IMG/VR virus record: IMGVR_UViG_3300025644_000002
Direction: 5' to 3' (one strand)
DNA length: 64,000 nucleotides
Origin: a virus
Taxonomy: Duplodnaviria; Heunggongvirae; Uroviricota; Caudoviricetes
Shown: positions 12,762 through 62,265 of the stretch, one piece after another
How positions within the stretch are numbered: position 1 is the stretch's first letter
Layout of the letters: every line of letters begins with the position of its first letter
Notes under the pieces: generated by a model
What the model was told of the DNA's origin: nothing
Databases searched by the model: none
The model's input: the letters and a program-made list of their open reading frames with translations, nothing else
Position numbers and translations under genes: made by a program

Positions 12762-12832
12762 TAATTACGTTGTGTAACACGTCAGTTGCACAAAAGGAGA
12801 GTGAAAGCTCTTCTTTTTACCTTAAAAAGCTA

Positions 12833-13165
12833 TTAATTGCTATTATTATCAATATTATTAAAGTTATTTAAGCCATCTAGCTCCATATGATCGAATATAA
12901 GTCTATTATCCTTATAATCTAATGTACTGCCAAGAAGATACATAGCAGTTTCCGAATCCATGGTGTGTGCATAGTCATCATCATACACTATATTTTTAAT
13001 ATCTTTTATGTCTTTATATGTAAAATCGAAGTGTGCCATCTCAGTTTCGTAATTTGGCGCCAACTTTATGTTTAATATGTGGGATTTTGGGTGATTTAAG
13101 CTAATTTTCTTAGTTTCTAACTGTATTGCAGCTGCTTTTGTAATCGAGAGAGGCGAATTGTGCAT
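12833..13165 (-). CDS. hypothetical protein (110 aa), start of the minus-strand late module
   Basis: ORF track; TAA stop. Confidence 0.45.
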   Translation of the reverse strand: MHNSPLSITKAAAIQLETKKISLNHPKSHILNIKLAPNYETEMAHFDFTYKDIKDIKNIVYDDDYAHTMDSETAMYLLGSTLDYKDNRLIFDHMELDGLNNFNNIDNNSN

Positions 13166-13287
13166 TATTTTTATACTGATTTAATACTTTATTCTTCAAA
13201 TTGTCTTTTATAGAGAGACCCCAGTGTATTATCATTGGAATTACCCCCTTTCTTTAATATAGTTAGATTCTAGGTATTATACAAATA

Positions 13288-13755
13288 TTAATTAGCGATA
13301 GTATCAGGTATTATCACTGGTTCAGGCTGAACATTTTCTATTTTTGGTGTATATTTATCTGAATATGGATACCAAGTGTCTGGTATGACCTGAGATAAGA
13401 AAGAGCCTATAACAAATGTCATAACTAGCCAGAATAACCGTGAAACGTTCGTATTAGCTTTTTTGACTAATTTGATCTGGTCTAACGTTTCTTCTTTCTG
13501 TAATTTGCCTACATATACCGTAGCTTCATTCATTTTGTGAATTACGCCGGTTTCAGGATCTAGAAGTCTTCTTTTAATCTCAGACATATCATTCTTAATG
13601 CCCCCAACTGTCTCTTTTAAAGTATCTACATTATCTTCTAATGATTTAAACTTACCGTTAGTAAAAGTCACTAACGTCTTTTCATGCTCATCCACTTTGT
13701 CTCCGATTTTAACGAAAAACTCTTCTCAGCTCATTGGTCCTTTTTTATCAGTCAT
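13288..13755 (-). CDS. membrane-associated structural/assembly protein; N-terminal extension contains an in-frame TGA (13726-13728)
   Basis: ORF track 13288..13695; the same frame stays open upstream through one TGA to an ATG at 13753-13755 that has an AGGAA RBS. Confidence 0.4.
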
Positions 13756-13784
13756 TCTAATATTCCTATTTTATAATGTGGAGA

Positions 13785-14201
13785 CTAAGCTCCAGGGTAT
13801 CCTAACTCTTGTGGGATTGTTATTGCGATTATCTTCGTATCTTCTAAAGCTACTCCAGAATGCATAACCTCATCTTTAAGAATTACGCAGTCTTGATAAG
13901 AATAGATTACGTCATCTACTCCTTCTTGTGTAATTCTTATACTCCCCTTTAATATGATTCCATACTCTACTATTGGATTTTCGTGAGTATGTGGTGGAAA
14001 CTCTGTTCCTTCTGGCAAAGATAATATCATTACTGATCCATCTTCTTCGTTATAAATACTTCGCCCTATAGAATCTGCCCCTGCAGTAGACTCGTACGCC
14101 TTTTCATATACAACCTCGTCTACGCCTTCTTGATCATTCTGGCTAACCACTAATTTCTGCAATGAAGTCATCTGTCGCGCCATATCCCCTAAAGATCTCA
14201 T
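13785..14201 (-). CDS. cupin-like protein (138 aa)
   Basis: FPPHTHENP…E…ILKG resembles the cupin metal-binding motifs; ends TAG. Confidence 0.4.
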   Translation of the reverse strand: MRSLGDMARQMTSLQKLVVSQNDQEGVDEVVYEKAYESTAGADSIGRSIYNEEDGSVMILSLPEGTEFPPHTHENPIVEYGIILKGSIRITQEGVDDVIYSYQDCVILKDEVMHSGVALEDTKIIAITIPQELGYPGA

Positions 14202-14209
14202 AGTATCTC

Positions 14210-15538
14210 CTAATTAGAGTACAGTTTGTTAACGCCCATAAGCAACAGTACTATTTTAGTTACTGAATCCATGGCGTTCTTTACGGCTTCCTCCGGAAGA
14301 TGCCTCATACCTAACCTAGTCATAAGCAGCATTTTGGCTAATTCACTCATAATCATCTCATATTGAGGTAATAGAGCTATGTATTCTATAATATTCTGTT
14401 TGTTGATAGCTCCAAGAGACAATACAGCATCTACAGTGCTTTTATCAGATAAAACCGCAGCCTCTTTTACTAAGTCTACTTTTAACATCTCTATGTCATT
14501 AGTACTATCTTCATAAGTTTCTGCTATTTTATCAATAAACACTTTTGGAGGTATAGGAGCTTCAATTGGACAAGCAATTAGCATTTCAGTGCCTTTCAGC
14601 AACATTGCCGCCTTATTTATATCAGTCTTGGTTGCTCCACAATGAATTAATGATCATTCTGCCTCTGAGAGGCTTAAATCACGTAATTCATGGCTGTTTT
14701 CTGCATATTTAGAGAACTCTGCACCTTTTAAGTAATAAAGGCCTACAGAGTCTTTTCCAACTGTGTGTTTATTTACTTTAACAGTATGTGGTATTTCATT
14801 TTGTAAGTATGATCCTAGCTTAATGAAGCTCACGTCCTTAGATAAATACCAACTAGATTCTTTTTCTACATATTTTGCTTCAGAAGTAGTTGTGTTGTCG
14901 ATGTAATAAGATACTTTTTCTCTTCCGGCCCATCCTGTAACTTTTAATGGGGTATCTTGATTATCCTCGCTAACTTCAGAAACTTTTCTTAATTCTTTGC
15001 CTAATTTAACAAACTTTGCTTCTTTAGGTAGTAACTTTCCGCCATTCTCTGAGTCCATCAGACTCTTAACAGGCATTTCAGTCAGGTAATACGCAATCTT
15101 CTGCAATCCATCCCAACCTGCTACTTGTACTTGTTTATTGCTAGAAGCTTCTAAGTCTTGTAATAGTTCTCTAATCTCAAAAGGCTTAGTGGCACTGCCA
15201 TCAGGCATAACTCACGCTCCGAAATCTCCTATTTTAGGAAAATCTCCGTCTATTTCTACATTTTCTGAAGACTTTTGTCCTAATTTCTCTAAAATAACCC
15301 AATCTTTATTCTTACTGATGCTAAGATACCCTGGACCTCCGTCTAGTTTATAAAGATTTGAAGAATATGACGATACTTTGTCCATTCCTAGTACTTCAAA
15401 AGGTTCAGAGACTGATTCTCCAAATTTTCAAACGCCAAGATCACCAACTTGTGGTTGGTCTTCTTCTAAAGTAAATGCTTCAGCCGTTTTCACATCATTT
15501 CTACTAAAATCATGATAATCTTTGTCCGATGTTACCAT
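14210..15538 (-). CDS. structural (baseplate/tail) protein, ~442 aa, with three in-frame TGA codons (15428-30, 15212-14, 14654-56)
   Basis: ORFs 14654..15208 and 14210..14605 plus the upstream frame form one continuous frame broken only by TGA; ends TAG at 14210-12. Confidence 0.55.
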
Positions 15539-15650
15539 AAGGTGTCTATCAGTGTCCCAAATCTTGTAGCAATTAGCATCTACAGACTCAGCAGTCTTTT
15601 CTTGGAAACTTGAAGCAGTTAATATCTCAAATTCTTCAGCTTCTGAAGCC

Positions 15651-16387
15651 TTAATAGGGAGTTCTCATACAAAATCTATGTTAGAATTAGCTTGTTTAAC
15701 TGTGTGATTACCTAAAGAGTCTTTAATAACTAACTGTCTATCTATATCAAGGTCCCTAATGAAAGAATCCACGATTTCTTCTTGACTCTCTGTTTTTGAC
15801 GCTAGTTTGTCTAAAACGTCTAATCTTCCGGTCTTTTTGAAGTTATTATGGATTTCTGGGTTGTTTTTAACAGTATTTAGTATTTCAACAACGGCTTTTT
15901 TGTCTATATGCTCAATTTTGTCAATAAATGAAGCTATTTTAGCAGGTCGTTCTTGTGAACTAGACTCGCTAGCTGAATTGTTTATACTCCCATCAGGAGA
16001 ATACTGTAATTGTGAGAACATGTCCAGTCCTGATTTAGGAGGAGACGACGCTACTCCTACAAATGCTCCTGGCGAAGTTAACATAGTTCTTAACACCTCA
16101 GTATTAAGTGGTAAAGTTCTTCCACCTGCCATAACTATGTCTAAAGGAGATAATTTCCAATCTTTGATTACTACTGGTATGGATGCCCCGGATATCTTTA
16201 ATACCCCTACCGCATATCCCTTTGTACTATCTTTTTTCTTCCACTGAACCACTGCAGGCTGATTTTGAGCGAACGGATATTGTTCGTAAAAATACGTAAT
16301 TACATTTCTAACCCACTTCGTTGCGTCCATATCCACTGAGTATGACGCTGTTTTAGTAAAAGAGTTCTTTATAAATAAGTTGTCCAT
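15651..16387 (-). CDS. structural protein (~240 aa); frame ends at TGA 15666-68, then ELPY, then TAA 15651-53
   Basis: ORF track 15665..16399; ATG at 16385-87 with a TGGAGA RBS. Confidence 0.5.
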
Positions 16388-16467
16388 TATTATCTCCAAT
16401 TAATCACTAACTTTGTTTCTTCTAACATTTCAATATAACTAAGCTTAGGTTTTTAGTCAAGTATTAT

Positions 16468-17010
16468 CTACGTTATAGTCCATACTACTGTAAGTACTAC
16501 ACCACTTGCCGACGTTCCTGTCATTTGAAACTTTATTTGTTTTACATAGTTATGGATACTAGTTGCCAAGTCTTCACAAAAGATCTCCACAGTTTGGGCT
16601 ATTAACTCTGCATTGCTGCTACCTCATGTGGGTGTTATAAAGGGTATTATTGGTCCTACAGGAGTATAAGTTATAAATCCTACTGCTGTAGGTACTAATG
16701 TAGTAGCTTCCGCTAGTAAATCTTCATCAGATATACCTCTAGACCCTGAAATCTCCGCCAATGGGTTAGATATAAAAGTTAAAGATACATCAACCTCTGG
16801 TCATTCGGGTATAGTTATTTCTACATTAGAAAAGTTTGTAGTGATTCCAGTAACTCCTACTACAGCCTCGCTCATATATTCACTAATAATCTCCCCTAAC
16901 CTGATGCTTTTTTCATCAACTGTATAAGCTATTCGGTTATCGCCTTCTAAATAATAATACTTATAAAACTCCGCGATTAGCTCAGTCTTTAAATTAGTTT
17001 CACTTAACAT
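16468..17010 (-). CDS. structural protein, 180 aa, with two in-frame TGA codons (16801-03, 16624-26)
   Basis: ORF 16801..17010 continues in the same frame through two TGAs to TAG at 16468-70; the start overlaps the upstream TAA as TAATG. Confidence 0.5.
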
Positions 17011-18569
17011 TATTCTGATAAAGTCTTCACAGTATAAATATTCTCATCCAAAGGATCATAAATACTTGGCTGAATTATTGGAGGTGACGAAGGTCCCACT
17101 CCTGTACCATGTGTATGTCCCGCGTATAATTCTGTAACAAACTCTTTAGTAACTAACGTCTGACCCTCTGAGCCTCCGAGATACACATTTTTACCTTCAG
17201 GCACGTCAAGAGTTATTCCGCTGCTATCCAAAGTTATAGTAAGAGTAGTATCTCCTAGATTCAGTTTAACAGTGTATGCCTCATTATTTAACGTCTTTGT
17301 CAATTTCAACTCTGGAGTTGCAACATCCCCGGACTGCACTGTTGTCTTTAATATATCTGTACCGCCAAACTCTTTAGTATACATTTTACCATTAGTTGTG
17401 GTTTCTAGCTGATGGATGTGTCTTCCTCATATTCTACCCGTGTTTAACTTGCCAAAACTACTTACATATTGCTGTTTAATTCCGGTGTTGATAAAAGTAT
17501 AATCGTAACCTTGCCCAGCTTTCCAGGCTGTAGCATCAAAAGTTCCATCATATATTTGATGTCTATATAACTCTCCCGCTAAACTCCCGGACTCTAATTT
17601 CCCAAATCTATTTATCATTGAGCTATTATTATTTGTTACTGCTCGTTTAAATACCCAATGAAATAAAGAACCTGCCGGGTGTTCTTCTCCTATATCAAAT
17701 AGATCTGTAGCCCCTTGATACCCTAGATGTAACTTAGTATAGGTATTCTTCTGTTTAGAACCTCCAGTAGCTTGTCTAGTCTCTAATTGATACAAATGGG
17801 AATAAGGCGTGCCTTTTAAATTCTTAACATGAGGTATGTATCCAGACTTTATAATAGTTTGATCTGTGAATTGGTGCTTGAAAGGAATACTGCGGTGAGT
17901 CTCAGTGTTTTCTGAGATATGGTCAAGATACCCAGTAGTATCATCAAACTTTGAATATACTTCTAAATGTGATGTAGCTCCTTTATCTATTCCTGCAGAT
18001 TTCTTAGGATGATATGAGTCTCTAACAAAATTAGTTGCGCTTCGTCTTTCATATCGTTTAGTTGTAATATTTAGTTTCTTATAAGCTCCATCCAAAGTTA
18101 TTTCAGCGAAGGCGTTAGAAAACCAACTAAAGAATCCATCTGGAGCCATTAGGAAGTTAGTTTTGTTCTTTCCACCTATTTTTAATAACACTCCCCCCTC
18201 TGGTACAGCTTCTGCAGATAAACCGCCGAAGGCCGAAGATAGTCCTGAGGGGATATAAGTAAGAATCTGTGCAACATTATTTCATTTGTCCAAGGCCACC
18301 AAACACTCCTGATTTTCAGGAGGCACTGATACTACTCCCGACCCAAATGCAGAAGTTGGTATAAATATCGGAGGTAACGCCAAATACGTCTTCTCAGGAT
18401 CTGTCTCATCTATTGCCTGAATATATATGTCTTTTTTATCTAGGGCGTTTACATCAGGACTCTCTACTGAAACTACCCTAGCTCTAAATACTTCATAATT
18501 TCTTTCCATACTTGAATATAACCCAATGTCTTTTAAAAAACAATATTTTCTGGTATAAGAATTTCGCAA
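17010..18569 (-). CDS. baseplate central spike protein, gp5/VgrG-like (OB-fold N-terminus), ~519 aa, with two in-frame TGA codons (18282-84, 17427-29)
   Basis: Three track ORFs (18282..18569, 17427..18191, 17010..17384) are co-linear in one frame, separated only by single TGAs. The N-terminus (ALPPIFIPTSAFGSGVVSVPPENQECLVALDK*NNVAQIL) aligns with the T4 gp5 OB-fold (PTTSAGKGMGGVFSLPRVGTEVLVSFLDGDPNRPIIL). An alternative ATG start lies at 18507-09. Confidence 0.6.
18552..18563 (+). promoter_or_regulatory. TGGTATAAGAAT promoter-like box facing the 18.6-19.7 kb non-coding region
   Basis: Same box as the early promoters, on the plus strand; no plus-strand ORF follows. Confidence 0.35.
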
Positions 18570-18589
18570 TCAAGGCTTAGCCTTAATTA

Positions 18590-19690
18590 GCACCTGGGTG
18601 GTATGACATCCAGTTAAAGATAACCCCAGCAATGGGACTAAAAGCAGTCGGGTCTGTGAAATTATACCTGGCATTGCGTTGTTCTCCTTCGGGAGTGCAA
18701 ACATTTATACACTGCGAACTTCTATTTATCTTGTAAAAAATAGTCCAACACTCCAGGCTAACTGCGAGGCGTGAAGGTCGAGATACGTATCCCCTGAGGG
18801 GTAGGCAGAAATGTCTGTATAGTAATCGCAAGATATCCTGTCTGTCAAGCGGGTTATCAATTATATAGTTTGTCGGGATCAAGATATTGAGGCCTTCATT
18901 GGCTTCTAAGTCAAGAAGAGACAACTACTATGATGAAGGATCGGAGGCTGTCATGGCTAATGACTTACGAGGGCGAGTGGCATTATGTGGCTGAAAACTA
19001 CGTAACCACAACCGGGAACGCGTCCTCCCAATCACAGAAAAACCATAATGTAGCTCAGTTGGTAGAGCAACGGAATATTAATCCGTAGATCACGAGTTCG
19101 ATTCTCGTCATTTATAATGAAAGCAATTAGATTCCTGGCTGCTTATAATAAAAGATCACTAATATCGGCCTGTATAACGTCGAGCTCTGCGCCTCGCAAG
19201 GGTTGCAGCAGTATTTATAAGGAAGCGGTTAAGCTTGGCGGCAGCTAAGATAGTCGTGAAATTGTAGAGTTAATGTAAGTGGAAAGACCTGGCTCCATAC
19301 CTGGAGCTGTGATTGGTGTATTACGACGACGTAAGTCTGCGTGGAAACGAGGGGAATTGAAATGATCCCTTTAAAGATATACCGTACTAACTGTATTCTC
19401 AGGAAAAGTACAAACTTCATAAAACTGGGCCAAAGACGTAATAAAAACGTTGGGTGTCTATCCGAAGGAGTTGCAAGGCTAGAGCCTTCAATTTGGAAAA
19501 GAATTTAAGATAGGGCTTCCTACTTAACGTAGGTGGTGCGGGGATTAATAAGTCTCGCAAAGGGAGTTGCATCCCTCGGAAGAAGAGTTTACCCCTCAGC
19601 CACTCTCATCTTCCATAAAAAGAATACCAGGAAAGCCACCTGAAAAATTGGCCTTACGCCCGTGCACTCTGTGCCATCTTACAAGCGTAT
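18590..19690 (+). ncRNA. Candidate structured non-coding RNA region (~1.1 kb, hairpin-rich, higher GC)
   Basis: No ORF of 60 aa or longer on the plus strand. Hairpins include CTCC-TTCG-GGAG (UUCG tetraloop), GCTCCA-tacc-TGGAGC and GGGA…TCCC. A promoter box lies upstream and a tRNA-like gene is embedded. Confidence 0.35.
19044..19116 (+). tRNA. tRNA-like gene with canonical D and T arms, anticodon loop ATATTAA (formal anticodon AUU) and an imperfect acceptor stem
   Basis: GTAGCTCAGTTGGTAGAGC D-arm, ACGGA/TCCGT anticodon stem, ACGAG-TTCGATT-CTCGT T-arm; acceptor pairs poorly. Confidence 0.35.
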
Positions 19691-19691
19691 T

Positions 19692-19724
19692 CTTTTTTTT
19701 ACCTTAAATTTGTAGGTATAAGAC
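19692..19724 (+). promoter_or_regulatory. T-run + ACCTTAAATTTGTAGGTATAAGAC cassette
   Basis: Variant copy of the motif. Confidence 0.4.
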
Positions 19725-19766
19725 CTATGACAATATTTAACCCTATAACATTATTTAATAAATACC

Positions 19767-19778
19767 GGTATAAGAATA
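19767..19778 (+). promoter_or_regulatory. CGGTATAAGAAT promoter-like box upstream of the 19803 gene
   Basis: Copy of the motif. Confidence 0.4.
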
Positions 19779-19802
19779 CTGGAATACACAGGAGACCCAT
19801 CA

Positions 19803-19988
19803 TTGACTAAATTCGATTTAAACAATCTCTTCGATAAAGAGGTTGTGTTCAAAATTAATAAAGCCTTACGTTCTACAAAATCAAACAAAGAACTAGAACT
19901 AAAAGTTATTATCTCTAAATACATGAAACAATTACCTAAAGACGTAAGCTTATCTGATTTTGCTAAATATCTTATCGAAACTAATTAA
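19803..19988 (+). CDS. hypothetical small protein (61 aa)
   Basis: ORF track. Confidence 0.4.
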   Translation: MTKFDLNNLFDKEVVFKINKALRSTKSNKELELKVIISKYMKQLPKDVSLSDFAKYLIETN

Positions 19989-20007
19989 CAAATAAAAAGG
20001 AGCAGTA

Positions 20008-20694
20008 ATGCTTAAAACTATTACAGACAAATTAACATATGAACTTGCTAAAGAATATATGTCCCTGCAACATAGAATGGGGGACATACATACTCCAGTT
20101 ATTATACAGAGAACTATATTCGGCGATGTTTCGATAGGGTATGTGTTGTCTACAGGAAAATACACAGCTTATTCTCGTAGCTATACAGGCTTACCTCCTA
20201 CCAAAACGATTCACCATTATGAGTTTCCAGAAGAATTAAAGCCTACAGTGTTAAGTAAAAGTGGTACAGCAATTTACGCAGCTTTTAGAAATCATTTTTT
20301 AGTGTATCATCATGAACTTTCCGATTATATATATATTTCCAAAAACTTGATACGTAAGATAGGCCTTCCTACTAAAGTACTGGTACCCTGCGAAGGTGAT
20401 GTTATATTATTTGAAGATACCCCACATACTATAAATTATGTAACTCTTCAAGAAAATAATAATCTTTTCAATTATTCTATAGCCACCACTCGGGGCTACG
20501 ATCGTGAGGTATCTATGAGCTTTGTAAATTCTTGTGAATTTTTACAAACCAAAAGACCACCTCGATTGTTCGGGTATCACGCCAGATTTACTAATGAGGG
20601 TTCTCAGTCCCGGATTGTTCAAATTGGATGTCATAGGATCACTAAATCCTTGTGGGACGTGTTACTTGAATCCGCCAACAACGATTATTTTTAA
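20008..20694 (+). CDS. paralog family B member 1
   Basis: Shared motifs: YxFPEEL.P.VL…NLIRKIGLP.KV..PCEGD…CEFLQ…P.RLFGY…GC……LW..LL. Confidence 0.5.
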   Translation: MLKTITDKLTYELAKEYMSLQHRMGDIHTPVIIQRTIFGDVSIGYVLSTGKYTAYSRSYTGLPPTKTIHHYEFPEELKPTVLSKSGTAIYAAFRNHFLVYHHELSDYIYISKNLIRKIGLPTKVLVPCEGDVILFEDTPHTINYVTLQENNNLFNYSIATTRGYDREVSMSFVNSCEFLQTKRPPRLFGYHARFTNEGSQSRIVQIGCHRITKSLWDVLLESANNDYF

Positions 20695-22259: not shown

Positions 22260-23360
22260 ACTACATCCTGAAGAAGAATAATTGGCCGTAATTGGCCGTG
22301 CTATCTTTTTCTTCTCGAAAGGCCATTAAACTTCCTGAATGTTCCGTTAGCATATATATCAATAATGCGTACTAAGGAGAACACAAGTTGGTTGCTAGCA
22401 AACCGCTTGTAATTAACTTTAGGAAAAAGTAGGCTTGTAGCCTGCACGGAACACCATTTACACCATCACTTACACCATCATTTATATACTAAAAAGACAA
22501 GCGTATCCTAATTAAGGAAATATTTCCAAATTCTAAACTACACTTTTTTTTATCTATAACATCAGTATTTTTAAGCATTTATAGCAATTACCAATTTCAT
22601 TACTACACGTTACTACACCTATTTTCAAAAGTGTAGTTTGGATATATTCTTTATTTACATACACTTATCAATACTAAACTACATTACTACACTTTTAGGC
22701 CAAAACTAGAGGGTCCTTAATCAGAAAAAAAAGAGATCGACAATTTATAAATATTTGCTGACGTGTCTCTCCTTCCAGAAAGCGTAGTAATCGTAGTAAT
22801 CGTAGTTTAGACCAAATAAGTTATTGTTATTATATATACATATATTTTTTTACTATGTGTAGTAATGGTGTAGTAATGGATTCAAAAGTGTAGTTTGGAT
22901 TTTTTATACTTTTCTCTTATCTTTATTATTTACCTATACTTACACCCAATTTCGACCAAAATGGCACTGGTAAGCAAAACCCCCAAACTGGTAAGCCAAC
23001 CCCCCTAAAGTGGTAAGCGAACGCCCCAAACTGGTAAGCAAAACATCAAAAGTGGTAAAAAAACCATCAAAAAAAGCCAGTGTATTTCTATTTTAGATAG
23101 AGCAAGCAGCTATATAGGTTACCCATATGTTGTGCAGAACTATATCGTACACAAGCTATATACCCATTACACAACATATAGGTCTTACCAAAACTACACT
23201 TTTCTTTACCACTTTGAGCACTTTCGTTACCACTTTCGACCAATTGCTTACCACTTTCAACCACCTTTTGACCACTTTTGCGCTCTTTTTACCAATAAAT
23301 TGTCCCAAAACACACAAATTATTACAAAAATTACAATCAAAATTAACCAGGAACTCACTA
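22260..23360. repeat. Iteron-rich non-coding region (candidate replication origin / regulatory hub)
   Basis: TAATTGGCCG x2 at 22281-22301; AAAGTGTAGTTTGGAT x2 plus inverted AAACTACAC copies; GTAGTAAT(C/G)G repeats; 5 copies of (C/G)TGGTAAGC at 21-22 bp period (22960-23075); inverted ACCACTTTC repeats at 23205-23290; TATAAATA at 22753. Confidence 0.5.
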
Positions 23361-26981: not shown

Positions 26982-27191
26982 ATGAGTAAAGTAGGAAACA
27001 ACAGCGGAAAAGATTATATTCTATGTTGTTGTATATGCTCTTCAACTAGAAAGGACATCCACATGGTGGGGCATCGTAATAAAGATAACCACTTAATAGG
27101 CTTCCTTTATGTATGTGATGAACACACTAAACAAGTAGAAGGAAAAAACTTTCAAGTAAAGTTCGTAGATGAAAAAGAGGAGACTAAATAA
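26982..27191 (+). CDS. small Cys-rich zinc-finger protein
   Basis: CCCICSS…CDEH. Confidence 0.4.
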   Translation: MSKVGNNSGKDYILCCCICSSTRKDIHMVGHRNKDNHLIGFLYVCDEHTKQVEGKNFQVKFVDEKEETK

Positions 27192-27888
27192 TATGGGAGA
27201 CGGAACCCCACTAGGTGATCGTATGAAAGATTATGAAGCTACCTATAAATACAAGCTTCACAAAAGAATGCCAGTAATAATAAGAGTAGACGGTAGAGCG
27301 TTTCACACTCTTACAAGAAAATTATATGGAAGAGGATGGTCTACCGGATTCTCTGCAAATATGATGGAAACTGCTAGGGCTTCTATGGAAGATATGCAGT
27401 CAACAAAGTTTTGCTATGGTCAATCTGATGAGATCAGTTTTTTATTAACGGATTATAAAACTCATAACACACAGTCGTGGTTCAATAATTCCATACAGAA
27501 AATAGTATCAATTACAGCAGCTATCGTAAGCACTAACTTTTATTCAATAACTGGCGAAAAAGTGCAGTTTGATGCTAGAGCTTTTAATTTGGCAAAAGAT
27601 GAAGTGACAAACTATTATATCTGGAGACAACAAGATGCTATACGCAACGCTGTCCAGATGGTAGGAAGAGAGCATTTCTCTCAGAAAGAACTTCACATGA
27701 GAAGTGTTGAGAATATAAAACATCTTCTATCCAAAAAGATAGGAATTAATTTTGATGACTTCTCTAGTTTAAGACGACAAGGGTACTGTATAGACAATAA
27801 CCACCCAGATATGAATATCCCAGTGTTTGCCTCAGCTAGGGGTAAAGATTACATTGAAAAACATGTATATTTAATAGAAAATAATTAA
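27169..27888 (+). CDS. Thg1-like protein (tRNA-His guanylyltransferase family 3'-5' nucleotide polymerase)
   Basis: VIIRVDGRAFHTL ~ Thg1 VVVRLDGRNFHRF; CYGQSDEISFLL ~ AYGQSDEYSFVF; YYIWRQQDAIRNA ~ YLSWRQADCHINN. Confidence 0.7.
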   Translation: MKKRRLNNMGDGTPLGDRMKDYEATYKYKLHKRMPVIIRVDGRAFHTLTRKLYGRGWSTGFSANMMETARASMEDMQSTKFCYGQSDEISFLLTDYKTHNTQSWFNNSIQKIVSITAAIVSTNFYSITGEKVQFDARAFNLAKDEVTNYYIWRQQDAIRNAVQMVGREHFSQKELHMRSVENIKHLLSKKIGINFDDFSSLRRQGYCIDNNHPDMNIPVFASARGKDYIEKHVYLIENN

Positions 27889-38202: not shown

Positions 38203-39276
38203 ATGAATACAGTCCTAACAGTTTTAGAAACCCAAATAAAGGAAGGGTGGGTAAAGCGAAGAAAACATCCAGAGTTTCCACTTTGGATATATAATTATAC
38301 CCATGCCACACAGTATGCTCGAAATTGGAACGATACCACTACTAGATGTAGGGGTCTTATACTAGATGAATATGGAACTGTAGTAGCCAACCCTTTTAGA
38401 AAATTTTTCAACTATACAGAATTAGAAGGACTAGGTATCGAGCTCCCAGATGACCACTACAGCATTTTTAATAAACTAGACGGATGTCTATTTATAATGG
38501 TTATGTGGAGGGGGCATTTAATTAAATCTACAAGAGGCTCTTTTGATAATGAATATATTACAGAGGCCAATGTAGTCTTAGAAGAAAAATACCCTGACCT
38601 TACTATAAGGGAGGACTTCACATACTGCTATGAGTTCTTAACACCTACTCTTAAGAAAGGGGGGATGACCTGTATCACCTACCCAGAGAGCGACCTAAGG
38701 CTATTGGCAGTACGCGATACGTTTACTGGCAGAGAGATAGGGTTGCACGCTGTTACTACTTGTATACCAAGAACAGAGCTATATGAACATGATTGCGATG
38801 TAAGTGAGTTATATAATGTACCAAATCAAGAAAACAAAGAAGGATTTGTGTTAGCATATGATAACGGGTTCAGAGTTAAAGTAAAATTTGACTGGTATGT
38901 AAGACATCACCGTATATTGCAGCTTTGCAATGATAAAACGGTATGGAAATACTTATCAGATCCAGAATTAGATATACAAGAGTTAATTGATATTGTACCA
39001 GATGAATACTATAAATGGCTTCATACCTCTATAGATAACTTTAGAGAGAATTATGTGATATTAGCAAACACTGCTTGTAAACAATACATGCACCTTATAA
39101 CTAGTTTCCCAGAATCAATTGATATGAAAAAACGAACTTCCAAAGCAGTAGCAGAAAAAGTCATAAATATTGGAAATAAACAAATAATTTCTTTAGTATT
39201 TACAATGTTACAAGGGAAAAACATAAAGCCCTTAATTTGGAAATATTTAAAACCAAAACAAACGGAGAAAAAATGA
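38203..39276 (+). CDS. rnlA: RNA ligase 1 (T4 RnlA-like)
   Basis: Motif I FNKLDGCL; EGFVLAYDNGFRVKVKFDWYVRHH ~ T4 Rnl1 [24 protein letters not shown]. Confidence 0.65.
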   Translation: MNTVLTVLETQIKEGWVKRRKHPEFPLWIYNYTHATQYARNWNDTTTRCRGLILDEYGTVVANPFRKFFNYTELEGLGIELPDDHYSIFNKLDGCLFIMVMWRGHLIKSTRGSFDNEYITEANVVLEEKYPDLTIREDFTYCYEFLTPTLKKGGMTCITYPESDLRLLAVRDTFTGREIGLHAVTTCIPRTELYEHDCDVSELYNVPNQENKEGFVLAYDNGFRVKVKFDWYVRHHRILQLCNDKTVWKYLSDPELDIQELIDIVPDEYYKWLHTSIDNFRENYVILANTACKQYMHLITSFPESIDMKKRTSKAVAEKVINIGNKQIISLVFTMLQGKNIKPLIWKYLKPKQTEKK

Positions 39277-39940: not shown

Positions 39941-41005
39941 ATGAGACATTTAGCAACAATCCAACTCATAGCTAATTTAGAGCCTATCTCTGGAGCAGAT
40001 GTAATTGAAAAAGCAACTGTAAAAGGCTGGCATCTAGTAGTTAAGAAGGGGGAATTTCAAATAGGTGATAAATGCGTCTACTTTGAAGTGGACTCTTTGT
40101 TGCCAGAAATAGAGCCGTTTGAATTCTTAAAGAAAAACGGTGTCAAAACAATAGATGACGGCACAAGAGGTTATCGCTTACGAACTATAAAATTGCGTAA
40201 GCAAATTAGTCAAGGGCTAGCCATGCCATTAGATACTTTCGAAGAGCTCGCCGATGGCCCCGAAGTGGGAACAGACGTAAGTGAACTTTTGAAAGTAGTA
40301 AAATATGAAGCACCCATTCCAGCATGCTTAAGTGGCCAGATTAAAGGCCACAGACCTTCCTGGATTCCTAAGACGGATGAAGAACGTGTACAGAATCTTG
40401 TAGATGAAATAAAAGAATGGGCAGGAACAGAGTGCTACATAACAGAGAAATTAGATGGATCGTCATCTACCTTTTATTATGCACCTAACTACCGAAAAGC
40501 AACACCTTTCGGAGTATGCAGTCGGAAGCTTGACCTAATAGAGAATGACAAAAATTCTTTCTGGAAAGTCGCTAGAGATATTGACGCAGAAGAGAAAATG
40601 TCTAAACTTGGTATAAATGTAATTTTCCAAGGAGAATTACTGGGGCCAGGGATTCAGAAAAATAAATACAAATTGTCTGCTACAGAAGTAAAAATGTTTA
40701 ACGCTTTTACTATACAAGATGGTGGCTTTGGAAGTATTGAGAGCTTTCTAAATCTTATATTTGGGGACTACACAACTGAGGGGGAAGTTCGCGTACGAGG
40801 GTTAGATAGAATATTTAATACTGTACCTGTCCTTAATCCAAAGATGGTGTTAAACCATACAGTAGACGAATTAGTAGAGCTTTCTAAAGGCCCAAGCCTT
40901 CTAAATCCTGATATCCCAAGAGAGGGAATTGTGATTAGAGCGAGAGATGGTAGCTTTAGTTTTAAAGTAATTAACCCTGACTTCTTAATTAAGTTTGGAG
41001 AATAA
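39941..41005 (+). CDS. rnlB: RNA ligase 2-like nucleotidyltransferase (Rnl2 family) with an extra N-terminal domain
   Basis: Motif I TEKLDGSS; FQGELLGPGIQKNKYKL ~ T4 Rnl2 FGEFAGPGIQKNVDY; motifs EGIVIR and SFKVINPDF. Confidence 0.6.
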   Translation: MRHLATIQLIANLEPISGADVIEKATVKGWHLVVKKGEFQIGDKCVYFEVDSLLPEIEPFEFLKKNGVKTIDDGTRGYRLRTIKLRKQISQGLAMPLDTFEELADGPEVGTDVSELLKVVKYEAPIPACLSGQIKGHRPSWIPKTDEERVQNLVDEIKEWAGTECYITEKLDGSSSTFYYAPNYRKATPFGVCSRKLDLIENDKNSFWKVARDIDAEEKMSKLGINVIFQGELLGPGIQKNKYKLSATEVKMFNAFTIQDGGFGSIESFLNLIFGDYTTEGEVRVRGLDRIFNTVPVLNPKMVLNHTVDELVELSKGPSLLNPDIPREGIVIRARDGSFSFKVINPDFLIKFGE

Positions 41006-41413: not shown

Positions 41414-42328
41414 ATGAGACAAGTAATAATACTACGGGGGTTACCCGCAAGCGGTAAGACTTCGTATGCCGTAGATATGATGGATAAAATGCCAGATACA
41501 TACAAACGTGTAAATAGGGATAGTCTACGAAGCATGGTTGATGGTGGAGTATACTCTAAAGGAAATGAGAAAATAATTAAAGCAATTAGAGACTCTTTAA
41601 TCTTTAGATACTTAGATGCCGGAAGATCAGTATTCGTAGATGATACAAACTTACACAGCTCAAATGAGGAGCATATTAGAAAAATAGTGGCGGACTATAA
41701 CATTTTACGGGAAGTTAAGCACGACGTATTAGTTGTGGTTAGAGAATTCCCTACAGATGTATTTGATGCCATTGATCGAGACGCATTACGTACAGGATCG
41801 GCCCATGTAGGCTCTAAAGTTATTTATGATATGTACAGTAGGTTTCTAAAGAAAGATGAGCCTCACGACTATCCTGAGCCTCCAGGCACGGTTGAGTTGG
41901 TAGACGGCTTACCTAAGGCAATCATTTGTGACTTAGACGGCACGATGGCATTCCTTAAAGGCCGTAACCCTTATGACGCCTCTACTTGTGAGAACGATAC
42001 TTACAATGCGATTTTGGGGGAAATTCTTCACGTTATGGACAAACAGGGATACCAAATAATCTTTTTATCTGGAAGATCGGAAAAATACCTTTCAGAAACT
42101 AGACAGTTTTTGAAAGCAAACCTTCCGTTTCCTCATTGGAAGATGTTCATGAGACCATTGTTTGAGCATAATATAAGAGATTCAATTCTTAAACGCAAAC
42201 TTTATGATGAACACGTTAAAGATAAATACAACGTATTTTGCGTGTTTGATGATAGAGACCAAGTAGTTGGTCTATGGCGTAAAGACTTAGGTCTACAATG
42301 TTTCCAAGTAAACTACGGAAACTTCTAA
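41414..42328 (+). CDS. pnk: polynucleotide kinase / 3'-phosphatase (T4 Pnk-like)
   Basis: N-terminal P-loop GLPASGKTS; C-terminal HAD motif ICDLDGT. Confidence 0.65.
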   Translation: MRQVIILRGLPASGKTSYAVDMMDKMPDTYKRVNRDSLRSMVDGGVYSKGNEKIIKAIRDSLIFRYLDAGRSVFVDDTNLHSSNEEHIRKIVADYNILREVKHDVLVVVREFPTDVFDAIDRDALRTGSAHVGSKVIYDMYSRFLKKDEPHDYPEPPGTVELVDGLPKAIICDLDGTMAFLKGRNPYDASTCENDTYNAILGEILHVMDKQGYQIIFLSGRSEKYLSETRQFLKANLPFPHWKMFMRPLFEHNIRDSILKRKLYDEHVKDKYNVFCVFDDRDQVVGLWRKDLGLQCFQVNYGNF

Positions 42329-44041: not shown

Positions 44042-44072
44042 CTTACAAAACGTACGTAAGAAACGGCGTAAC

Positions 44073-44140
44073 GGGGCGGTATCTCAGCAGGGTAGAGTTA
44101 GGGGATACCCTAGACATTGGTTCGAATCCAATCCGCGCTG
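44073..44140 (+). tRNA. tRNA-like gene (68 nt) whose anticodon arm is replaced by a TAGGG-GATA-CCCTA tetraloop hairpin
   Basis: Acceptor GGGGCGG/CCGCGCT, D-arm, canonical T-arm ATTGG-TTCGAAT-CCAAT, but no 7-nt anticodon loop can be folded. Confidence 0.35.
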
Positions 44141-44169
44141 TTACGTTCGTTCTTATTAAAAGGAAAACT

Positions 44170-44949
44170 ATGAACATAGATTCACATTTTATTCAAGGGG
44201 CCACTCATCGGGTTTGTGAAGATTATACACTTCATGGGGAAACAGATGAGATAGCTTATATTATTGTATGTGATGGGTGTTCAAGCGCTCCTCACACAGA
44301 TTTTGGAGCTAGATTAATAGCCCATAGTGTAGAACAAGCCATTAGAGAATTTGGAGAGCTGACTCGTCAAAAATTAGAGTGGCAACTTCAATTATGTAAA
44401 GGTTATACTGATGTCCAAGGCCTGGACCGCCGTATGCTGCTGTCAACTGTGTTGGTAGCTATCTATAATAAAGAAAAACAAAGCTTTTATATTCTTATGG
44501 CCGGAGATGGACATTGTTTCTTAGATTCAAAAGAAGGACCGCTTCATATAGATATTCAATCACCTCATAATACTCCATACTATCCTGCGTATAACATTAC
44601 TCGAAAAGATCAGGAAGAATACAAAGAGTGTTTAAAGGACAAAGGACAAACAGTTGTTCACATGAATGATGGTGACGAGGATCCTACCAATGTAGCATTA
44701 GAAACTGGAATGCCCTTTATATTTCAGCCTGATTACCCGATAGCTTCGGTAATTTTAACTACTGATGGTATAGACCAAGTAATAGATAGGGATACTGGAG
44801 AGAGAGTAGTGATTGATGATATCATCACTCATTTCCCAAGTGCCGCAGGAGCATTCGCTGTAAGAAAACTAAGGTTTCTTAAGAAAACCTGGAATAGAAA
44901 TTATATTACTAACGCAGACGATATTGGAATTGCTGGAATAATATTATGA
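44170..44949 (+). CDS. PP2C-family Ser/Thr phosphatase
   Basis: VCDGCSSAPHTDFGA ~ PP2C xDGxGGxxxG motif; sits between the vWA and kinase genes. Confidence 0.5.
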   Translation: MNIDSHFIQGATHRVCEDYTLHGETDEIAYIIVCDGCSSAPHTDFGARLIAHSVEQAIREFGELTRQKLEWQLQLCKGYTDVQGLDRRMLLSTVLVAIYNKEKQSFYILMAGDGHCFLDSKEGPLHIDIQSPHNTPYYPAYNITRKDQEEYKECLKDKGQTVVHMNDGDEDPTNVALETGMPFIFQPDYPIASVILTTDGIDQVIDRDTGERVVIDDIITHFPSAAGAFAVRKLRFLKKTWNRNYITNADDIGIAGIIL

Positions 44950-47161: not shown

Positions 47162-47839
47162 ATGAGATTATTAATGAGAGCGTTAGTAGGAAGTAGATTG
47201 CATGGGTTAGATACTCCTATAAGTGATTTCGATTATAAAACTGTATTTATTGAGACTACTTCAAATATTTTAGCTTTACCAGAGCACCAGCCCAGCGATC
47301 CAAAGGATCCAGCAGATACCTGGGAATTAGCTAGATTTCTACATTTCGCATTAAGAAGTAATCCTACAATTCTGGAAACTTTTAAAGCGACATTTACTAC
47401 AGAAAACGAGAACTGGTGTGAAGAGTTAAGAAGTCTATTTCCAGACGTTTGGAGTTCTAAATTAGTTTTCCACTCGTACAGGGGTTATGCTCAATCGCAA
47501 CGCAAAAAGCTTTTAGAAAATGATGAAGCCCTTAGTAATGGAAATGTAGAATTAGATACCATTAGAAAAAGAAAATCATCAGCGGCCTGGTTAAGAATGT
47601 TATATAATGGATACGAACTATTACAAACTGGCGATTTTACAGCCAGAATAGCTGATACAGAAGTAGGCATTCTTTGCAGAAAATATAAGGAAGGCGAATC
47701 TACTATACCAGAGGTTATAAAAACTTGTAGCTCTTGGGAAGAAAAACTAGAAGACGCGTTTAATAAGTCTACAAAAAAAGAAGCTAACTCAAAATTAGTA
47801 AATGATTTTCTATTAAAAATAAGAAAAGTTTCTTGGTAA
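47162..47839 (+). CDS. minimal nucleotidyltransferase (Pol-beta superfamily)
   Basis: GSRLHGLDTPISDFDY matches GS…SDxD. Confidence 0.45.
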   Translation: MRLLMRALVGSRLHGLDTPISDFDYKTVFIETTSNILALPEHQPSDPKDPADTWELARFLHFALRSNPTILETFKATFTTENENWCEELRSLFPDVWSSKLVFHSYRGYAQSQRKKLLENDEALSNGNVELDTIRKRKSSAAWLRMLYNGYELLQTGDFTARIADTEVGILCRKYKEGESTIPEVIKTCSSWEEKLEDAFNKSTKKEANSKLVNDFLLKIRKVSW

Positions 47840-48956: not shown

Positions 48957-49029
48957 TGGGGGCTCATCCAACGTAAAGGACGTCTGCAGAGGCAGGCGAA
49001 TGTGGGTTCAAATCCCACACCCCCAACCA
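48957..49029 (+). tRNA. tRNA-like gene with encoded ACCA, a canonical T-arm, and a 7-bp CGTCTGC/GCAGGCG + AGAG tetraloop hairpin in place of the anticodon arm
   Basis: TGGGGGC…ACCCCCA-A-CCA; GTGGG-TTCAAAT-CCCAC; no 5+7+5 anticodon arm can be folded. Confidence 0.35.
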
Positions 49030-49031
49030 AC

Positions 49032-49103
49032 GCCGTGGTCGTCTAATGGTAAGACGCTCTTAGTCCGCTAAGAGAAATGGAGGTTCAACTCCTTCCCTAG
49101 GCT
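49032..49103 (+). tRNA. tRNA-like gene with a non-canonical anticodon arm (CTCTT-AGTCCGCT-AAGAG, 8-nt loop, or a 6-bp stem with 6-nt loop)
   Basis: D-arm TCGTCTAATGGTAAGACG, T-arm GGAGG-TTCAACT-CCTTC, acceptor GCCGTGG/CCTAGGC with 2 mismatches. Confidence 0.35.
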
Positions 49104-49112
49104 CTAATTTAT

Positions 49113-50167: not shown

Positions 50168-50388
50168 TGAATAAATTAACTCAAGAGGAAATGAAAACCC
50201 TCTTTCAAACAACAAATAAAATGGGACTAAACAACCCCCTCTGGAGACGTGGGCAATGTATTTTTAATGCACTTTATATACTTTATCCGGAAGTAGCAGA
50301 AGAGATTAGAGCTACAGCAATGGATCCATTTTACCAGGATAGTAGAATAGCTGCCTGTATAAACCACATTACAAAGGATGAAGGATGA
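50149..50388 (+). CDS. hypothetical protein (79 aa)
   Basis: ORF track. Confidence 0.4.
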   Translation: MRETLVMNKLTQEEMKTLFQTTNKMGLNNPLWRRGQCIFNALYILYPEVAEEIRATAMDPFYQDSRIAACINHITKDEG

Positions 50389-51092
50389 AAAATAAAATAT
50401 TTGTACTGGGAGACGTACATGGTAATTACCAGGGCATGCTCCAATGTTTCGAACGTTCTAACTTCAATTATGAGGAGGATACATTAGTCTTTCTTGGCGA
50501 TATAAATGACGGGTGGCCAGATACGGCAAAGTGTTTCGAAGAACTTTTAAAGATTAAGAATTTAATATAGGTTATAGGTAATCACGACGTATGGCTACTT
50601 GGGTGGTTAGAATATGGACAAACTCCCTCATTGTGGACTAGACAAGGTGGTATGGCTACAATTGCCAGCTACGTGTCAGCCCCACTAGAATGGAGAACTA
50701 AGCACCTACATTATCTACGTAACAAAACAGTATTTTACCACATCGATGATGAGAACAAAATCTACGTACACGGAGGATTCGATCAAAAGGTCCCTATCCG
50801 GGATCAGGATCCGTATAATTTGTATTGGAATCGTCACATCATTGAAGTGGCAAAAATTTACGTAACTCAAAAGCGTGAATTTAAAGATTATAAAGAGGTA
50901 TTCGTTGGGCATACAACTACAGGAATGTTTGGAACGGATAAACCTTTAAATATTTCCAATCTATGGATGTTAGACACCGGATCAGGTTGGGAAGGAAAAC
51001 TTACTATCATGGATGTAAATACGCATGAGTACTGGCAATCAGACTTATCAGAAGATTTATATCCGAACGACTACCATGGAAGAGAACGATAA
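50385..51092 (+). CDS. ApaH / PP-lambda-type metallophosphoesterase interrupted by a single in-frame TAG (50568-50570)
   Basis: Motif 1 GDVHG and motif 2 FLGDINDGWPD lie before the TAG; motif 3 VIGNHD lies immediately after it in the same frame; VHGG and GHT follow. Track ORFs 50385..50570 and 50631..51092 are the two halves. Confidence 0.6.
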
Positions 51093-53610: not shown

Positions 53611-53694
53611 GCTGGTGTTACCTGAGCGGTCGAAAGGTCCTGATTTGTAATCAGGTGACGAAAGTCCACGTAGGTTCGAATCCTACCATCAGCC
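53611..53694 (+). tRNA. class II tRNA (Ser-like body, GAAA-capped variable arm) with anticodon loop TTTGTAA = anticodon UGU
   Basis: Acceptor GCTGGTG/CATCAGC, D-stem ACCT/AGGT, anticodon stem CCTGA/TCAGG, variable arm TGACGAAAGTCCAC, T-arm GTAGG-TTCGAAT-CCTAC. Confidence 0.45.
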
Positions 53695-53695
53695 C

Positions 53696-53780
53696 GTTGT
53701 CGGTGGCAGATTTGGTAATGCACTCGGCTGTGACCCGAGTTGGAGTTGCTCCTCATGCGGGTTCAAATCCCGTCCGACAC
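53696..53780 (+). tRNA. tRNA with a GUG (His) anticodon, a possible G-1, a T1:C72 mismatch and an unusually long variable arm
   Basis: Anticodon arm ACTCGG-CTGTGAC-CCGAGT; variable hairpin GGAG-ttg-CTCC; T-arm GCGGG-TTCAAAT-CCCGT. Confidence 0.45.
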
Positions 53781-53804
53781 CCCAATTAACTTAGGAACTA
53801 AAAA

Positions 53805-54821: not shown

Positions 54822-54914
54822 GGAGAGGTGTAAGAGAATGGTATTCTGCCGGTCTTGAAAACCGGTGCGCCCCCGCAAGGGGGTCTGCAGGTTCGATCCC
54901 TGTCCTCTCCTCCA
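54822..54914 (+). tRNA. tRNA-Ser (TGA), class II, CCA encoded
   Basis: Acceptor GGAGAGG/CCTCTCC is perfect; anticodon arm CCGGT-CTTGAAA-ACCGG; variable arm GCGCCCCCGCAAGGGGGTC. Confidence 0.7.
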
Positions 54915-58707: not shown

Positions 58708-59300
58708 TAGAGGGGAAGTTATCCGGATATATGCTGATGCATATCAGCGCAGGTGCAAGATCCTGTACTTCCCCACCAATTAACGCGAGTTCGTCTAAGT
58801 CTAGGAACCTCTTTGTTAGAGAGGGAATGTAGTGTAATAAACTACACTCGCGACCAAATTATAAGTAGGAAGTAGGCTTAGAAGCAGCCATCTTTTAAAG
58901 AGTGATAACTCATGCTCTAAACATGACGTAGCAGTTGGATAAAATCTACCTCCAGGGAAAAGGCATTGGGGGCTGTAGCTAGGAGTGCCTCCTAGTTGTC
59001 TTTGGCGTAACAGCACACTATTTATATACATTAATTAAACTTTCAAGTTGCCTTGAGGGCACAGAGGATGTACGATTGGAACAGAGGATGTATCGCACAC
59101 AGCGATCTGTTGAGAGGGCCTACGCTATCGGGTTGATCACCGATCGAACTAACGCCAAACATTCATGAGATCCTCGGTGAGCGACCTGAACAACTTGAAA
59201 CACCTTTACCCAGTAGCAATACTGGAGAAGAGTCGTCGAATAGAGCCCCAAGATCCCTTCTATTCGGCGATTTAGTTTATAACTGATAACTTAACCAAAA
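58708..59300 (+). ncRNA. Candidate structured non-coding RNA region (~0.6 kb)
   Basis: Nested stems GGGGAAGT…ACTTCCCC (58712-58774) around GCTGAT-gcat-ATCAGC; CGCGAGT…ACTCGCG (58785-58851); direct repeat ACAGAGGATGTA x2; a T-arm-like ATCGG-GTTGATCA-CCGAT; no plus-strand ORF. Confidence 0.3.
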
Positions 59301-59666: not shown

Positions 59667-60218
59667 ATGAAGCCTAAAAGAATTAAAGGTATATCTCCTG
59701 CAATAATGCTGACAAACCCAAAGTTTGCAGTTAACGTTGGAGCTACAGTTAGGGCAGCGTCATGTTGGGGAGCAGAGCAAGTTTATTGGACTGGACATAG
59801 AGTGCAGCATCCAGATGAATGGACAGAAAAATATAGACTTCCAAGGGAAGAACGTATGAAGGGATACAAAGAAGTATCTATGCATAGAGTTGATACGTTA
59901 AAACATACATTGAAAAATTTTAGCGAAGACACAGTTCCGGTAGCAATAGAATTAAGGCCTGGATCTGAAATGTTATTTGATTTTGAACATCCTGAAAACG
60001 CAGTGTATGTATTCGGCCCAGAAGATGGTGGGCTGGATTGGAAAACATTACAACATTGTCATCGATTTGTGGTACTACCCACGGCCCACTGTACTAATTT
60101 AGCAGCAGCCGTAAATGTAGTATTAGCTCATCGGAAAGAACAAAGATTTAAAAAGGGGTTAATTCCCGATATTTATGATTCTTTACAAGAGGATCGTGGA
60201 TTTATAGGTAACTGCTAA
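59667..60218 (+). CDS. SpoU/TrmH-family RNA 2'-O-methyltransferase
   Basis: IMLTNPKFAVNVGATVRAASCWG, VYVFGPEDGGLD and TAHCTNLAAAVNVVL match SPOUT motifs 1-3. Confidence 0.55.
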   Translation: MKPKRIKGISPAIMLTNPKFAVNVGATVRAASCWGAEQVYWTGHRVQHPDEWTEKYRLPREERMKGYKEVSMHRVDTLKHTLKNFSEDTVPVAIELRPGSEMLFDFEHPENAVYVFGPEDGGLDWKTLQHCHRFVVLPTAHCTNLAAAVNVVLAHRKEQRFKKGLIPDIYDSLQEDRGFIGNC

Positions 60219-62261: not shown

Positions 62262-62265
62262 CAAT

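Follow-up and report, generated by a model that had tools for sequence, protein, structure and literature searches.

A minus-strand gene block with in-frame TGA codons

The window analyzed here is the whole 64,000-nucleotide stretch of IMG/VR virus record IMGVR_UViG_3300025644_000002 (Caudoviricetes) and comes from a contractile-tailed marine jumbo phage that is abundant and has its own tRNA set. On its minus strand, at 12.8-18.5 kb, lies a block of six genes whose predicted products suggest a spike/baseplate module, and four of these genes contain in-frame TGA codons. Stop codons were listed for each of the three minus-strand frames between 13000 and 19000. The four frames at 13288-18509 (genes of 499, 180, 725 and 155 codons) contain nine TGA codons inside genes and no TAA or TAG interruption, which bears out the claim of an earlier note on this DNA that the structural-gene frames are broken by TGA only. 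The block consists of the following genes.

17010-18509, minus strand: VgrG-like central spike gene, 499 codons; TGA at 18282-18284 and 17427-17429; stop TAA at 17010-17012 (frame open except for TGA over 17010-18704, with TGA at 18570, 18282 and 17427)
16468-17010, minus strand: 180-codon gene; TGA at 16801-16803 and 16624-16626; stop TAG at 16468-16470 (frame open except for TGA over 16468-17145, with in-gene TGA at 16801 and 16624)
14210-16387, minus strand: 725-codon conserved virion-module gene; TGA at 15665-15667, 15428-15430, 15212-15214 and 14654-14656; stop TAG at 14210-14212 (frame open except for TGA over 14210-16399, with TGA at 15665, 15428, 15212 and 14654)
13785-14201, minus strand: 138-codon cupin-domain gene without TGA; stop TAG
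13288-13755, minus strand: 155-codon gene; TGA at 13726-13728; stop TAA (frame open except for TGA over 13288-13770, with TGA at 13726)
12833-13165, minus strand: 110-codon gene, the last of the block, without TGA; homologue in the related locus L001

The six block genes end in TAA (3) or TAG (3), and none ends in TGA. When TGA was set to sense, the block fragments merged to 565, 226, 730 and 161 codons, while the plus-strand open reading frames (ORFs) were nearly unaltered. The TAA/TAG-free run beyond the block TGAs, taken after a TGA closing an open stretch of at least 60 codons, was 110-484 codons. Re-prediction with translation table 4, which had been proposed as a check, raised the coverage of 12801-18710 by ORFs of at least 100 aa from 0.70 with the standard code to 0.89, compared with merely 0.62 to 0.63 and 0.71 to 0.75 in the flanks. 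The probable start of the spike gene is ATG 18509, the start also used by the metagenome gene caller, and an additional in-frame TGA at 18570 lies upstream of it. This TGA ends a 44-codon ORF (18570-18704, minus strand) with a lipoprotein-type signal (LLGLSLTGC), in the spike frame and 20 codons before the spike gene; the ORF may be a small lipoprotein gene or else part of the 5' leader.

Homologues of the 725-codon gene product in other metagenomic phages are 697-730 aa long and align at 30-39% identity with 95-100% coverage. Likewise, the spike homologues P0026-P0028 and the genes of the related loci L001 and L002 extend over both spike TGAs. As full-length homologues run across the TGAs, each TGA-interrupted frame represents a single gene. 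The TGA coordinates given in the earlier note were right in all cases but one: the codon placed at 15666-68 lies at 15665-15667 and is internal to the 725-codon gene rather than terminal. Since homologues also cover the part upstream of it, the '442-aa gene' described there is the C-terminal portion of the 725-codon gene. The stretch 15209-15675, said to hold only two stops, holds three TGAs (15665, 15428 and 15212).

It is very improbable that the TGAs are not decoded at all and that the block is made up of pseudogenes, assembly errors or unconnected small genes sharing a frame by chance. Standard-code metagenome callers do split it, into pieces of 75, 240, 124, 69, 240, 36, 57, 184, 131 aa and more, and some fragments start with ATG, GTG or TTG shortly after a TGA. 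However, the frames are broken by TGA alone, conservation continues across the TGAs, and the nine junctions all being in the same frame has a chance probability of ~(1/3)^9 = 5e-5, with open extensions and homology not yet counted. Relatives with reciprocal TGG/TGA swaps, and repeats in which W and TGA alternate (both described below), likewise argue against undecoded TGAs.

The in-frame TGAs are not an assembly artefact. Two further assemblies in the European Nucleotide Archive (ENA), ERZ23491642 scaffold_55 (138,951 bp) and ERZ508549 NODE_13 (211,738 bp), were 100% identical to the window over the stretches retrieved, and the scaffold_55 locus (L007) includes the recoded block at 100% identity, so that the objection of assembly error, named earlier as a possible refutation, failed. 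The exact 240-aa product cut at TGA 15665 is recorded in 66 collection blocks, and one protein of the phage lineage in 84, including Hawaii and Saanich-type samples. The window end is overlapped by a marine ENA contig at 100% identity, and Saanich-type samples yielded JGI contigs that match the left flank at 100% identity. Judged by the placement of the two long contigs, the genome measures at least ~250 kb, of which ~89 kb was surveyed as same-genome sequence (the window plus ~25 kb of flanks in L003, L004, L005 and L008). At window ~22458-22480 (L007 3807-3908), the HAWL17-1 scaffold carries ~100 nt of inserted or duplicated sequence and is otherwise 100% identical.

The spike profile weakly matches VgrG (6u9e; E = 1.3e-3), and the spike protein has the C-terminal motif HTHGTG. 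In L001, the spike homologue is followed in synteny by an 84-aa gene, a gene for a PF19267 CIS_spike_tip protein (57.6 bits) and a homologue of 726 aa; the 180-codon gene occupies the place of the 84-aa and CIS spike-tip genes. The 138-codon gene matches Cupin_2 (30.2 bits). Pfam and PHROG searches with the four read-through proteins were uninformative, except that the 155-aa protein, which has a C-terminal hydrophobic segment, weakly matched a PHROG labelled 'hemolysin'. The 725-aa protein had no relative in Pfam, PHROG or PDB, and neither megablast with the block nor tblastn with the 725-aa protein gave a match among 50,697 GenBank phages.

The residue at TGA and the reach of the recoding

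In an alignment of the 725-codon gene product (A1), TGA 15665 is opposite W in 11 of 14 homologues and opposite Y or F in the other three, TGA 15428 is opposite W in the three closest homologues (GDxGVW), and at TGA 15212 five homologues have W and the remainder F or Y. The column of TGA 14654 is nearly invariant W. Spike TGA 17427 is opposite W/Y, and spike TGA 18282 falls in a variable loop of the alignment. W or another aromatic residue is thus found at five of the six alignable sites, and the aligned residues are W, Y or F and never Gly or Cys. These alignments show TGA to be a tryptophan codon in the predicted products of the minus-strand block genes, in agreement with the earlier view of TGA as a sense codon in the structural-gene block. 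Altogether the four recoded genes contain 23 Trp positions, 9 written as TGA (39%) and 14 as TGG. Examples of predicted read-through peptides across TGA sites are IGDFGAWVMPDGSATKPFEIR and DLSLSEAEWSLIHCGATK.

A reading of TGA as Gly (translation table 25, with a Gracilibacteria or Absconditabacteria host) or as selenocysteine is of practically negligible probability. Code-25 phages exist, and a tRNA at 54822-54910 passes the Rfam tRNA-Sec threshold. However, table 25, previously suggested as a candidate code, is excluded because TGA aligns with Trp and not Gly. The putative tRNA-Sec, whose anticodon loop is CUUGAAA, is a tRNA-Ser because its anticodon is UGA, not UCA. Furthermore, the nine TGA sites in the four genes share no common downstream hairpin or sequence context, and their contexts are heterogeneous.

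Relatives of the phage also exchange the two codons. In the mutually close IMG/VR loci L014 and L015, TGG and TGA are exchanged reciprocally at three Trp positions of the 725-codon gene family. L001 contains a tail-fibre-like frame of at least 1630 codons (15502-20394, plus strand) with BNR-type SxDxGxTW repeats and seven in-frame TGAs, of which a standard-code caller made five genes. Its internal repeat occurs as ETDPVFTAWDKSTGIS in three copies and as ETDP[VI]F[TI]A-TGA-DKSTGIS in two. Across the lineage, L002, L012, L013, L016 and L017 are without recoding, the window phage, L001, L014 and L015 are lightly recoded, and L018 is heavily recoded.

The plus-strand gene set consists of 104 crude standard-code ORF calls, which contain 285 TGG codons and no in-frame TGA. 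The earlier note had taken such codon use as a sign of the standard code in plus-strand genes. The absence of in-frame TGA follows from calling the ORFs with that code; independent evidence comes from the lack of frames joined across TGA. Ten ORFs end in TGA (TAA 74, TAG 20, TGA 10). For nine of these ten genes, read-through to the next TAA or TAG would add 1-13 codons, and for the tenth 32. Four of the ten TGA stops form ATGA stop/start overlaps (11436, 29757, 44946 and 50385), and a fifth (11834) forms a GTGA overlap with the start of the next gene. These features fit a role of TGA as a genuine stop in the plus-strand genes.

A host that itself uses translation table 4 (UGA = Trp, no release factor 2 [RF2], like Mycoplasma and Spiroplasma), and whose code the phage merely shares, is an unlikely alternative, as the earlier note had also judged from plus-strand TGG use. 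It would agree with the lack of a UCA tRNA, release factor 1 (RF1) and tryptophanyl-tRNA synthetase (TrpRS) in ~89 kb, and most 'code 4' isolates are phages of Mycoplasma or Spiroplasma (PMC11210395). The short extensions of TGA-ending plus-strand genes would also be tolerable. However, phages of such hosts, which are alike in reading TGA as Trp, place it in genes of every class and do not terminate with it, whereas ~100 plus-strand genes avoid TGA internally here and ten end in it. A code-4 host gives no reason why, in DNA of 36% GC, the plus strand should have 285 TGG codons and no TGA-joined frames when 39% of block Trp codons are TGA, and ATGA overlaps are typical of TGA as a stop. Close relatives also vary in whether and where TGA is used. 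Finally, open-ocean and Saanich-type metagenomes contain the phage in abundance, and no abundant free-living code-4 bacteria are known from these habitats.

In-frame TGAs are also present in a second minus-strand block to the left of the window, which includes the following frames.

L005 1462-3513, minus strand: frame of 684 codons with two TGAs
L008 5367-6668: DUF5662 gene with in-frame TGA
L008 6659-7402: frame with in-frame TGA
L008 8096-8743: frame with in-frame TGA

The recoding is therefore limited to certain gene blocks. Because the second block holds nonstructural genes, sense TGA codons follow minus-strand blocks and not strictly structural genes; the SNF2 helicase gene of that block has no TGA. 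Of the label 'late structural' given to the first block earlier, the second word fits the VgrG-like spike gene and, in the syntenic counterpart, a CIS spike-tip gene; it does not extend to all TGA-containing genes. At the edge of the left block (L005 3510-3854, minus strand), a 114-aa product has a precomputed Pfam match to Mito_carr (mitochondrial carrier), which is unusual in a phage.

Decoding of UGA and UAG

The minus-strand blocks of this marine jumbo phage probably read UGA as Trp with a phage-supplied decoder in a standard-code host. The host would use the standard code; the one indirect sign of this is that plus-strand genes employ TGA as a stop. Partway through infection the phage would supply a UGA decoder, as described for gut phages, most probably a tRNA with anticodon UCA that is charged with Trp by the host TrpRS. 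The decoder gene would lie in the remaining ~160 kb of the genome. TGA-containing genes would then be translatable late only, with no premature expression and none in cells without the decoder. The timing, the code of the host and the nature of the decoder are inferred.

Several observations weigh against this reading. Neither the window nor the ~25 kb of same-genome flanks yielded a tRNA with anticodon UCA, although the phage tRNAs cover all 20 amino acids plus a CUA suppressor, and no such suppressor (Sup-UCA) was found in the surveyed loci of recoded relatives. No RF1 or TrpRS gene was present among the proteins scanned or pre-annotated. Four of the nine TGAs (18282, 16801, 16624 and 13726) lie in orphan or variable sequence from which the residue is not inferable; for 16801 and 16624 the reason is that the 180-aa protein has no informative homologues, as a HMMER search of 1.84 billion representatives matched nothing but a 69-aa piece of this protein cut at a TGA. 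Nonstructural genes also occur in the second TGA-containing block, the TGA-bearing DUF5662 gene standing beside the SNF2 helicase gene. The late status of the block is suggested by function and strand.

In a separate search, the T4-type late promoter TATAAATA occurred 22 times in comparison with 12.6 expected, with no occurrence informatively placed upstream of the block.

ARAGORN identified 22 tRNA genes in the window and Rfam two more, fewer than the ~30 counted earlier. The flanks were walked for ~9 kb to the left, ~9 kb to the right and 6 kb more to the left. The right flank adds tRNAs for Leu, Gln, two Arg and Ser as well as a transfer-messenger RNA (tmRNA), and the left flank adds a tRNA-Trp(CCA). 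The tmRNA lies at L004 17994-18365 (~window +70.4 kb) and has the tag GRPAVKLAA, and further tRNAs lie within L004 12224-15487. The UCA tRNA search comprised ARAGORN with default and relaxed thresholds, Rfam with gathering and E-value thresholds, and regular expressions for 5-bp stems around NT-TCA-NN. It covered ~89 kb, with at least 160 kb of the genome outside, so a genome-wide absence is not implied. The earlier note was correct that no UCA tRNA is present in the window, and its view that the decoding tRNA lies elsewhere or comes from the host is supported; the CUA suppressor tRNA described below had been overlooked.

The sole regular-expression match with a tRNA-like GC-rich stem was the antisense strand of the tRNA-Ser(UGA) gene, which was rejected as a UCA tRNA because no cloverleaf was called and Ser misfits the invariant Trp sites. 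An IMG/VR search with a Trp-derived UCA anticodon arm retrieved Sup-UCA tRNAs of other phages, none of them related to the window phage. Likewise, no host clues were found in GTDB genome contigs searched with the gene family and the phage tRNA-Trp. Previous research has shown that TGA-to-W recoding falls mainly in the structural and lysis genes of phages that infect standard-code hosts, with a TGA suppressor tRNA in only 35% of the genomes (bioRxiv 10.1101/2021.08.26.457843), and that 15% of code-4 phages carry such a tRNA, Sup-TCA (PMC11210395). As surveys find it in just 15-35% of TGA-recoded phages, its absence from the sequence surveyed here is not anomalous.

It is also conceivable, but improbable, that UGA is read without a UCA tRNA, by C-A wobble of the phage tRNA-Trp(CCA) with RF2 disabled or out-competed, and possibly with the help of modifying enzymes or ribosome-targeting RNAs. 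The gene for this tRNA (L005 4549-4621) stands alone at the edge of the left minus-strand block, and no UCA tRNA was found even though the phage tRNAs serve all 20 amino acids. Possible helpers encoded by the phage are an SpoU methylase, enzymes of the Thg1-like and RlaP types and an RNA that mimics the L11-binding domain of 23S rRNA, and 65-85% of published TGA-recoded phages are likewise without detectable Sup-TCA. However, the tRNA-Trp has the ordinary G24 and the anticodon arm of E. coli tRNA-Trp, so it is not a Hirsh-type suppressor with A24. With four TGAs in one gene, read-through would have to be almost complete, a level that near-cognate decoding is not known to reach, and the searched part leaves at least 160 kb of the genome for a decoder. 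In addition, loss of L11 favours UAG rather than UGA read-through.

Two plus-strand features bear on the decoding of TAG.

62186-62262, plus strand: suppressor tRNA with anticodon CUA, which reads TAG and is unable to read TGA; the sole suppressor tRNA found
50385-51092, plus strand: lambda-type Ser/Thr metallophosphatase gene with an in-frame TAG at 50568-50570, between motif II (GDxxDG) and motif III (GNHD)

The in-frame TAG, missed by the earlier note, is spanned by the Pfam Metallophos match (residues 4-177), and in an alignment with the lambda phosphatase 1g5b over residues 4-211 it is opposite Ala/Ser. The gene is either a read-through gene or a pseudogene. General TAG recoding was rejected: of three in-frame TAG junctions, two proved to be normal gene boundaries of the AAGGAG-TAG-ATG form, and the phosphatase TAG alone lies inside a domain. 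TAG is otherwise a normal stop that ends 20 of the 104 plus-strand ORFs, often in AAGGAG-TAG-N3-6-ATG junctions, as well as three recoded-block genes. Because of the latter, any amber suppression must be partial or temporally separate.

A takeover of both codons is a doubtful further possibility. UGA would be read as Trp without a UCA tRNA, by tRNA-Trp(CCA) together with an RF2-neutralizing phage factor or by a noncanonical tRNA-like RNA, and UAG would be suppressed by the CUA tRNA. If so, UAA alone would terminate reliably late in infection by an abundant ocean phage, and this could give a handle on why most TGA-recoded phages are without a detectable suppressor tRNA. The noncanonical tRNA-like genes of the window are as follows.

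48957-49029, plus strand: noncanonical tRNA-like gene
49032-49104, plus strand: noncanonical tRNA-like gene
44072-44141, plus strand: noncanonical tRNA-like gene
53611-53695, plus strand: noncanonical tRNA-like gene
53697-53784, plus strand: noncanonical tRNA-like gene

Two adjacent members of this group show either a 6-nt loop in the place of the anticodon loop or a 7-bp stem closed by a tetraloop. An 8-nt loop ('gggg') is found in one, and the genes for tRNA-Thr and tRNA-His (85 and 88 nt) possess long variable arms.

Comparison with known systems and other window features

Block-wise TGA-to-Trp recoding is already published for gut phages, and the window phage adds a marine jumbo phage. The closest likeness is to the gut Agate, Jade and some crAss-like phages (Borges et al., 10.1101/2021.08.26.457843 / Nat Microbiol 2022; Yutin et al. 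2021, PMC7886860). As in those phages, in-frame TGA is opposite Trp, the block with recoded codons is a putative virion module while plus-strand genes keep the standard code, GC is low, TAA is the favoured stop and TGA stops are rare (here 10 of 104). Coding also differs among close relatives, and the cognate suppressor tRNA is often not found. In contrast to the gut phages, the window phage is a pelagic marine jumbo phage, myovirus-like, and its recoding is light (9 TGAs in ~5.4 kb). Furthermore, the sole suppressor tRNA seen here reads TAG, and no RF1/TrpRS 'code-change operon' was seen in the surveyed sequence.

Block-wise dual coding in phage genomes has been modelled by Mgcod (bioRxiv 10.1101/2022.06.29.495998). 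The genome is likewise divided into blocks here, with code 4 in minus-strand and code 11 in plus-strand blocks. The Mgcod dual codes were described for crAss-like phages, whereas the blocks of the window phage, whose genome has at least 250 kb and a near-complete tRNA set, match strand switches. The TAG-to-Gln phages (Lak and crAss-like; Peters et al. 2022, PMC9523058) are alike in having a phage CUA suppressor tRNA and at least one in-frame TAG in a conserved-domain gene. They differ in that TAG is otherwise an ordinary stop in the window phage.

Phage stop-codon recoding has been described almost entirely from the gut and is now extended to an abundant pelagic marine jumbo-phage lineage. Recoding was reported in 0-0.65% of non-gut jumbo phages by a screen requiring a 10% gain in coding density (PMC13037316), and three opal recoding events were reported in cold-seep viruses. 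As the recoding of the window phage is light, whole-genome screens of this kind would miss it. Block-limited light recoding thus slips past coding-density screens, and the virion genes concerned stand fragmented in public databases. The lineage of unrecoded, lightly and heavily recoded relatives with TGG/TGA swaps constitutes a natural series for studying how recoding starts. The lack of a UGA decoder among tRNAs for 20 amino acids and an amber suppressor also sharpens the question of how UGA is read without Sup-TCA.

The plus strand carries small early-type genes and arrays of tRNA genes, and its proteins include two RNA ligases, a polynucleotide kinase, Thg1-like and RlaP proteins, a NAMPT-like protein, NAD synthase, a PP2C phosphatase and a kinase-like protein. 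The genes for tRNA/RNA repair and modification (Thg1-like, two RNA ligases, polynucleotide kinase, RlaP nucleotidyltransferase and SpoU-type methylase) lie at the following positions.

27169-27888, plus strand: tRNA/RNA repair and modification gene
38203-39276, plus strand: tRNA/RNA repair and modification gene
39941-41005, plus strand: tRNA/RNA repair and modification gene
41414-42328, plus strand: tRNA/RNA repair and modification gene
47162-47839, plus strand: tRNA/RNA repair and modification gene
59667-60218, plus strand: tRNA/RNA repair and modification gene

The PP2C phosphatase gene (44170-44949, plus strand) adjoins that of the kinase-like protein, which has 563 aa. Among the tRNA genes, a 59-nt sequence at 58861-58919 (plus strand) closely mimics the L11-binding GTPase-associated centre of 23S rRNA (GGCUUAGAAGCAGCCAUC..UUUAAAGAGUG), matching positions 1089-1152 of the large-subunit rRNA model (E = 1.7e-7 to 8e-7), and may be a decoy for L11 or a ribosome factor. 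The divergent neighbour of the recoded block is a match to the GOLLD RNA at 18968-19405 (plus strand; 124.8 bits, E = 1.8e-32), which is under the gathering score of 150. Nested in it at 19045-19116 is a tRNA-like element with an Rfam tRNA score of 58.7 bits and no ARAGORN call, whose loop (AUAUUAA) would give the anticodon AUU.

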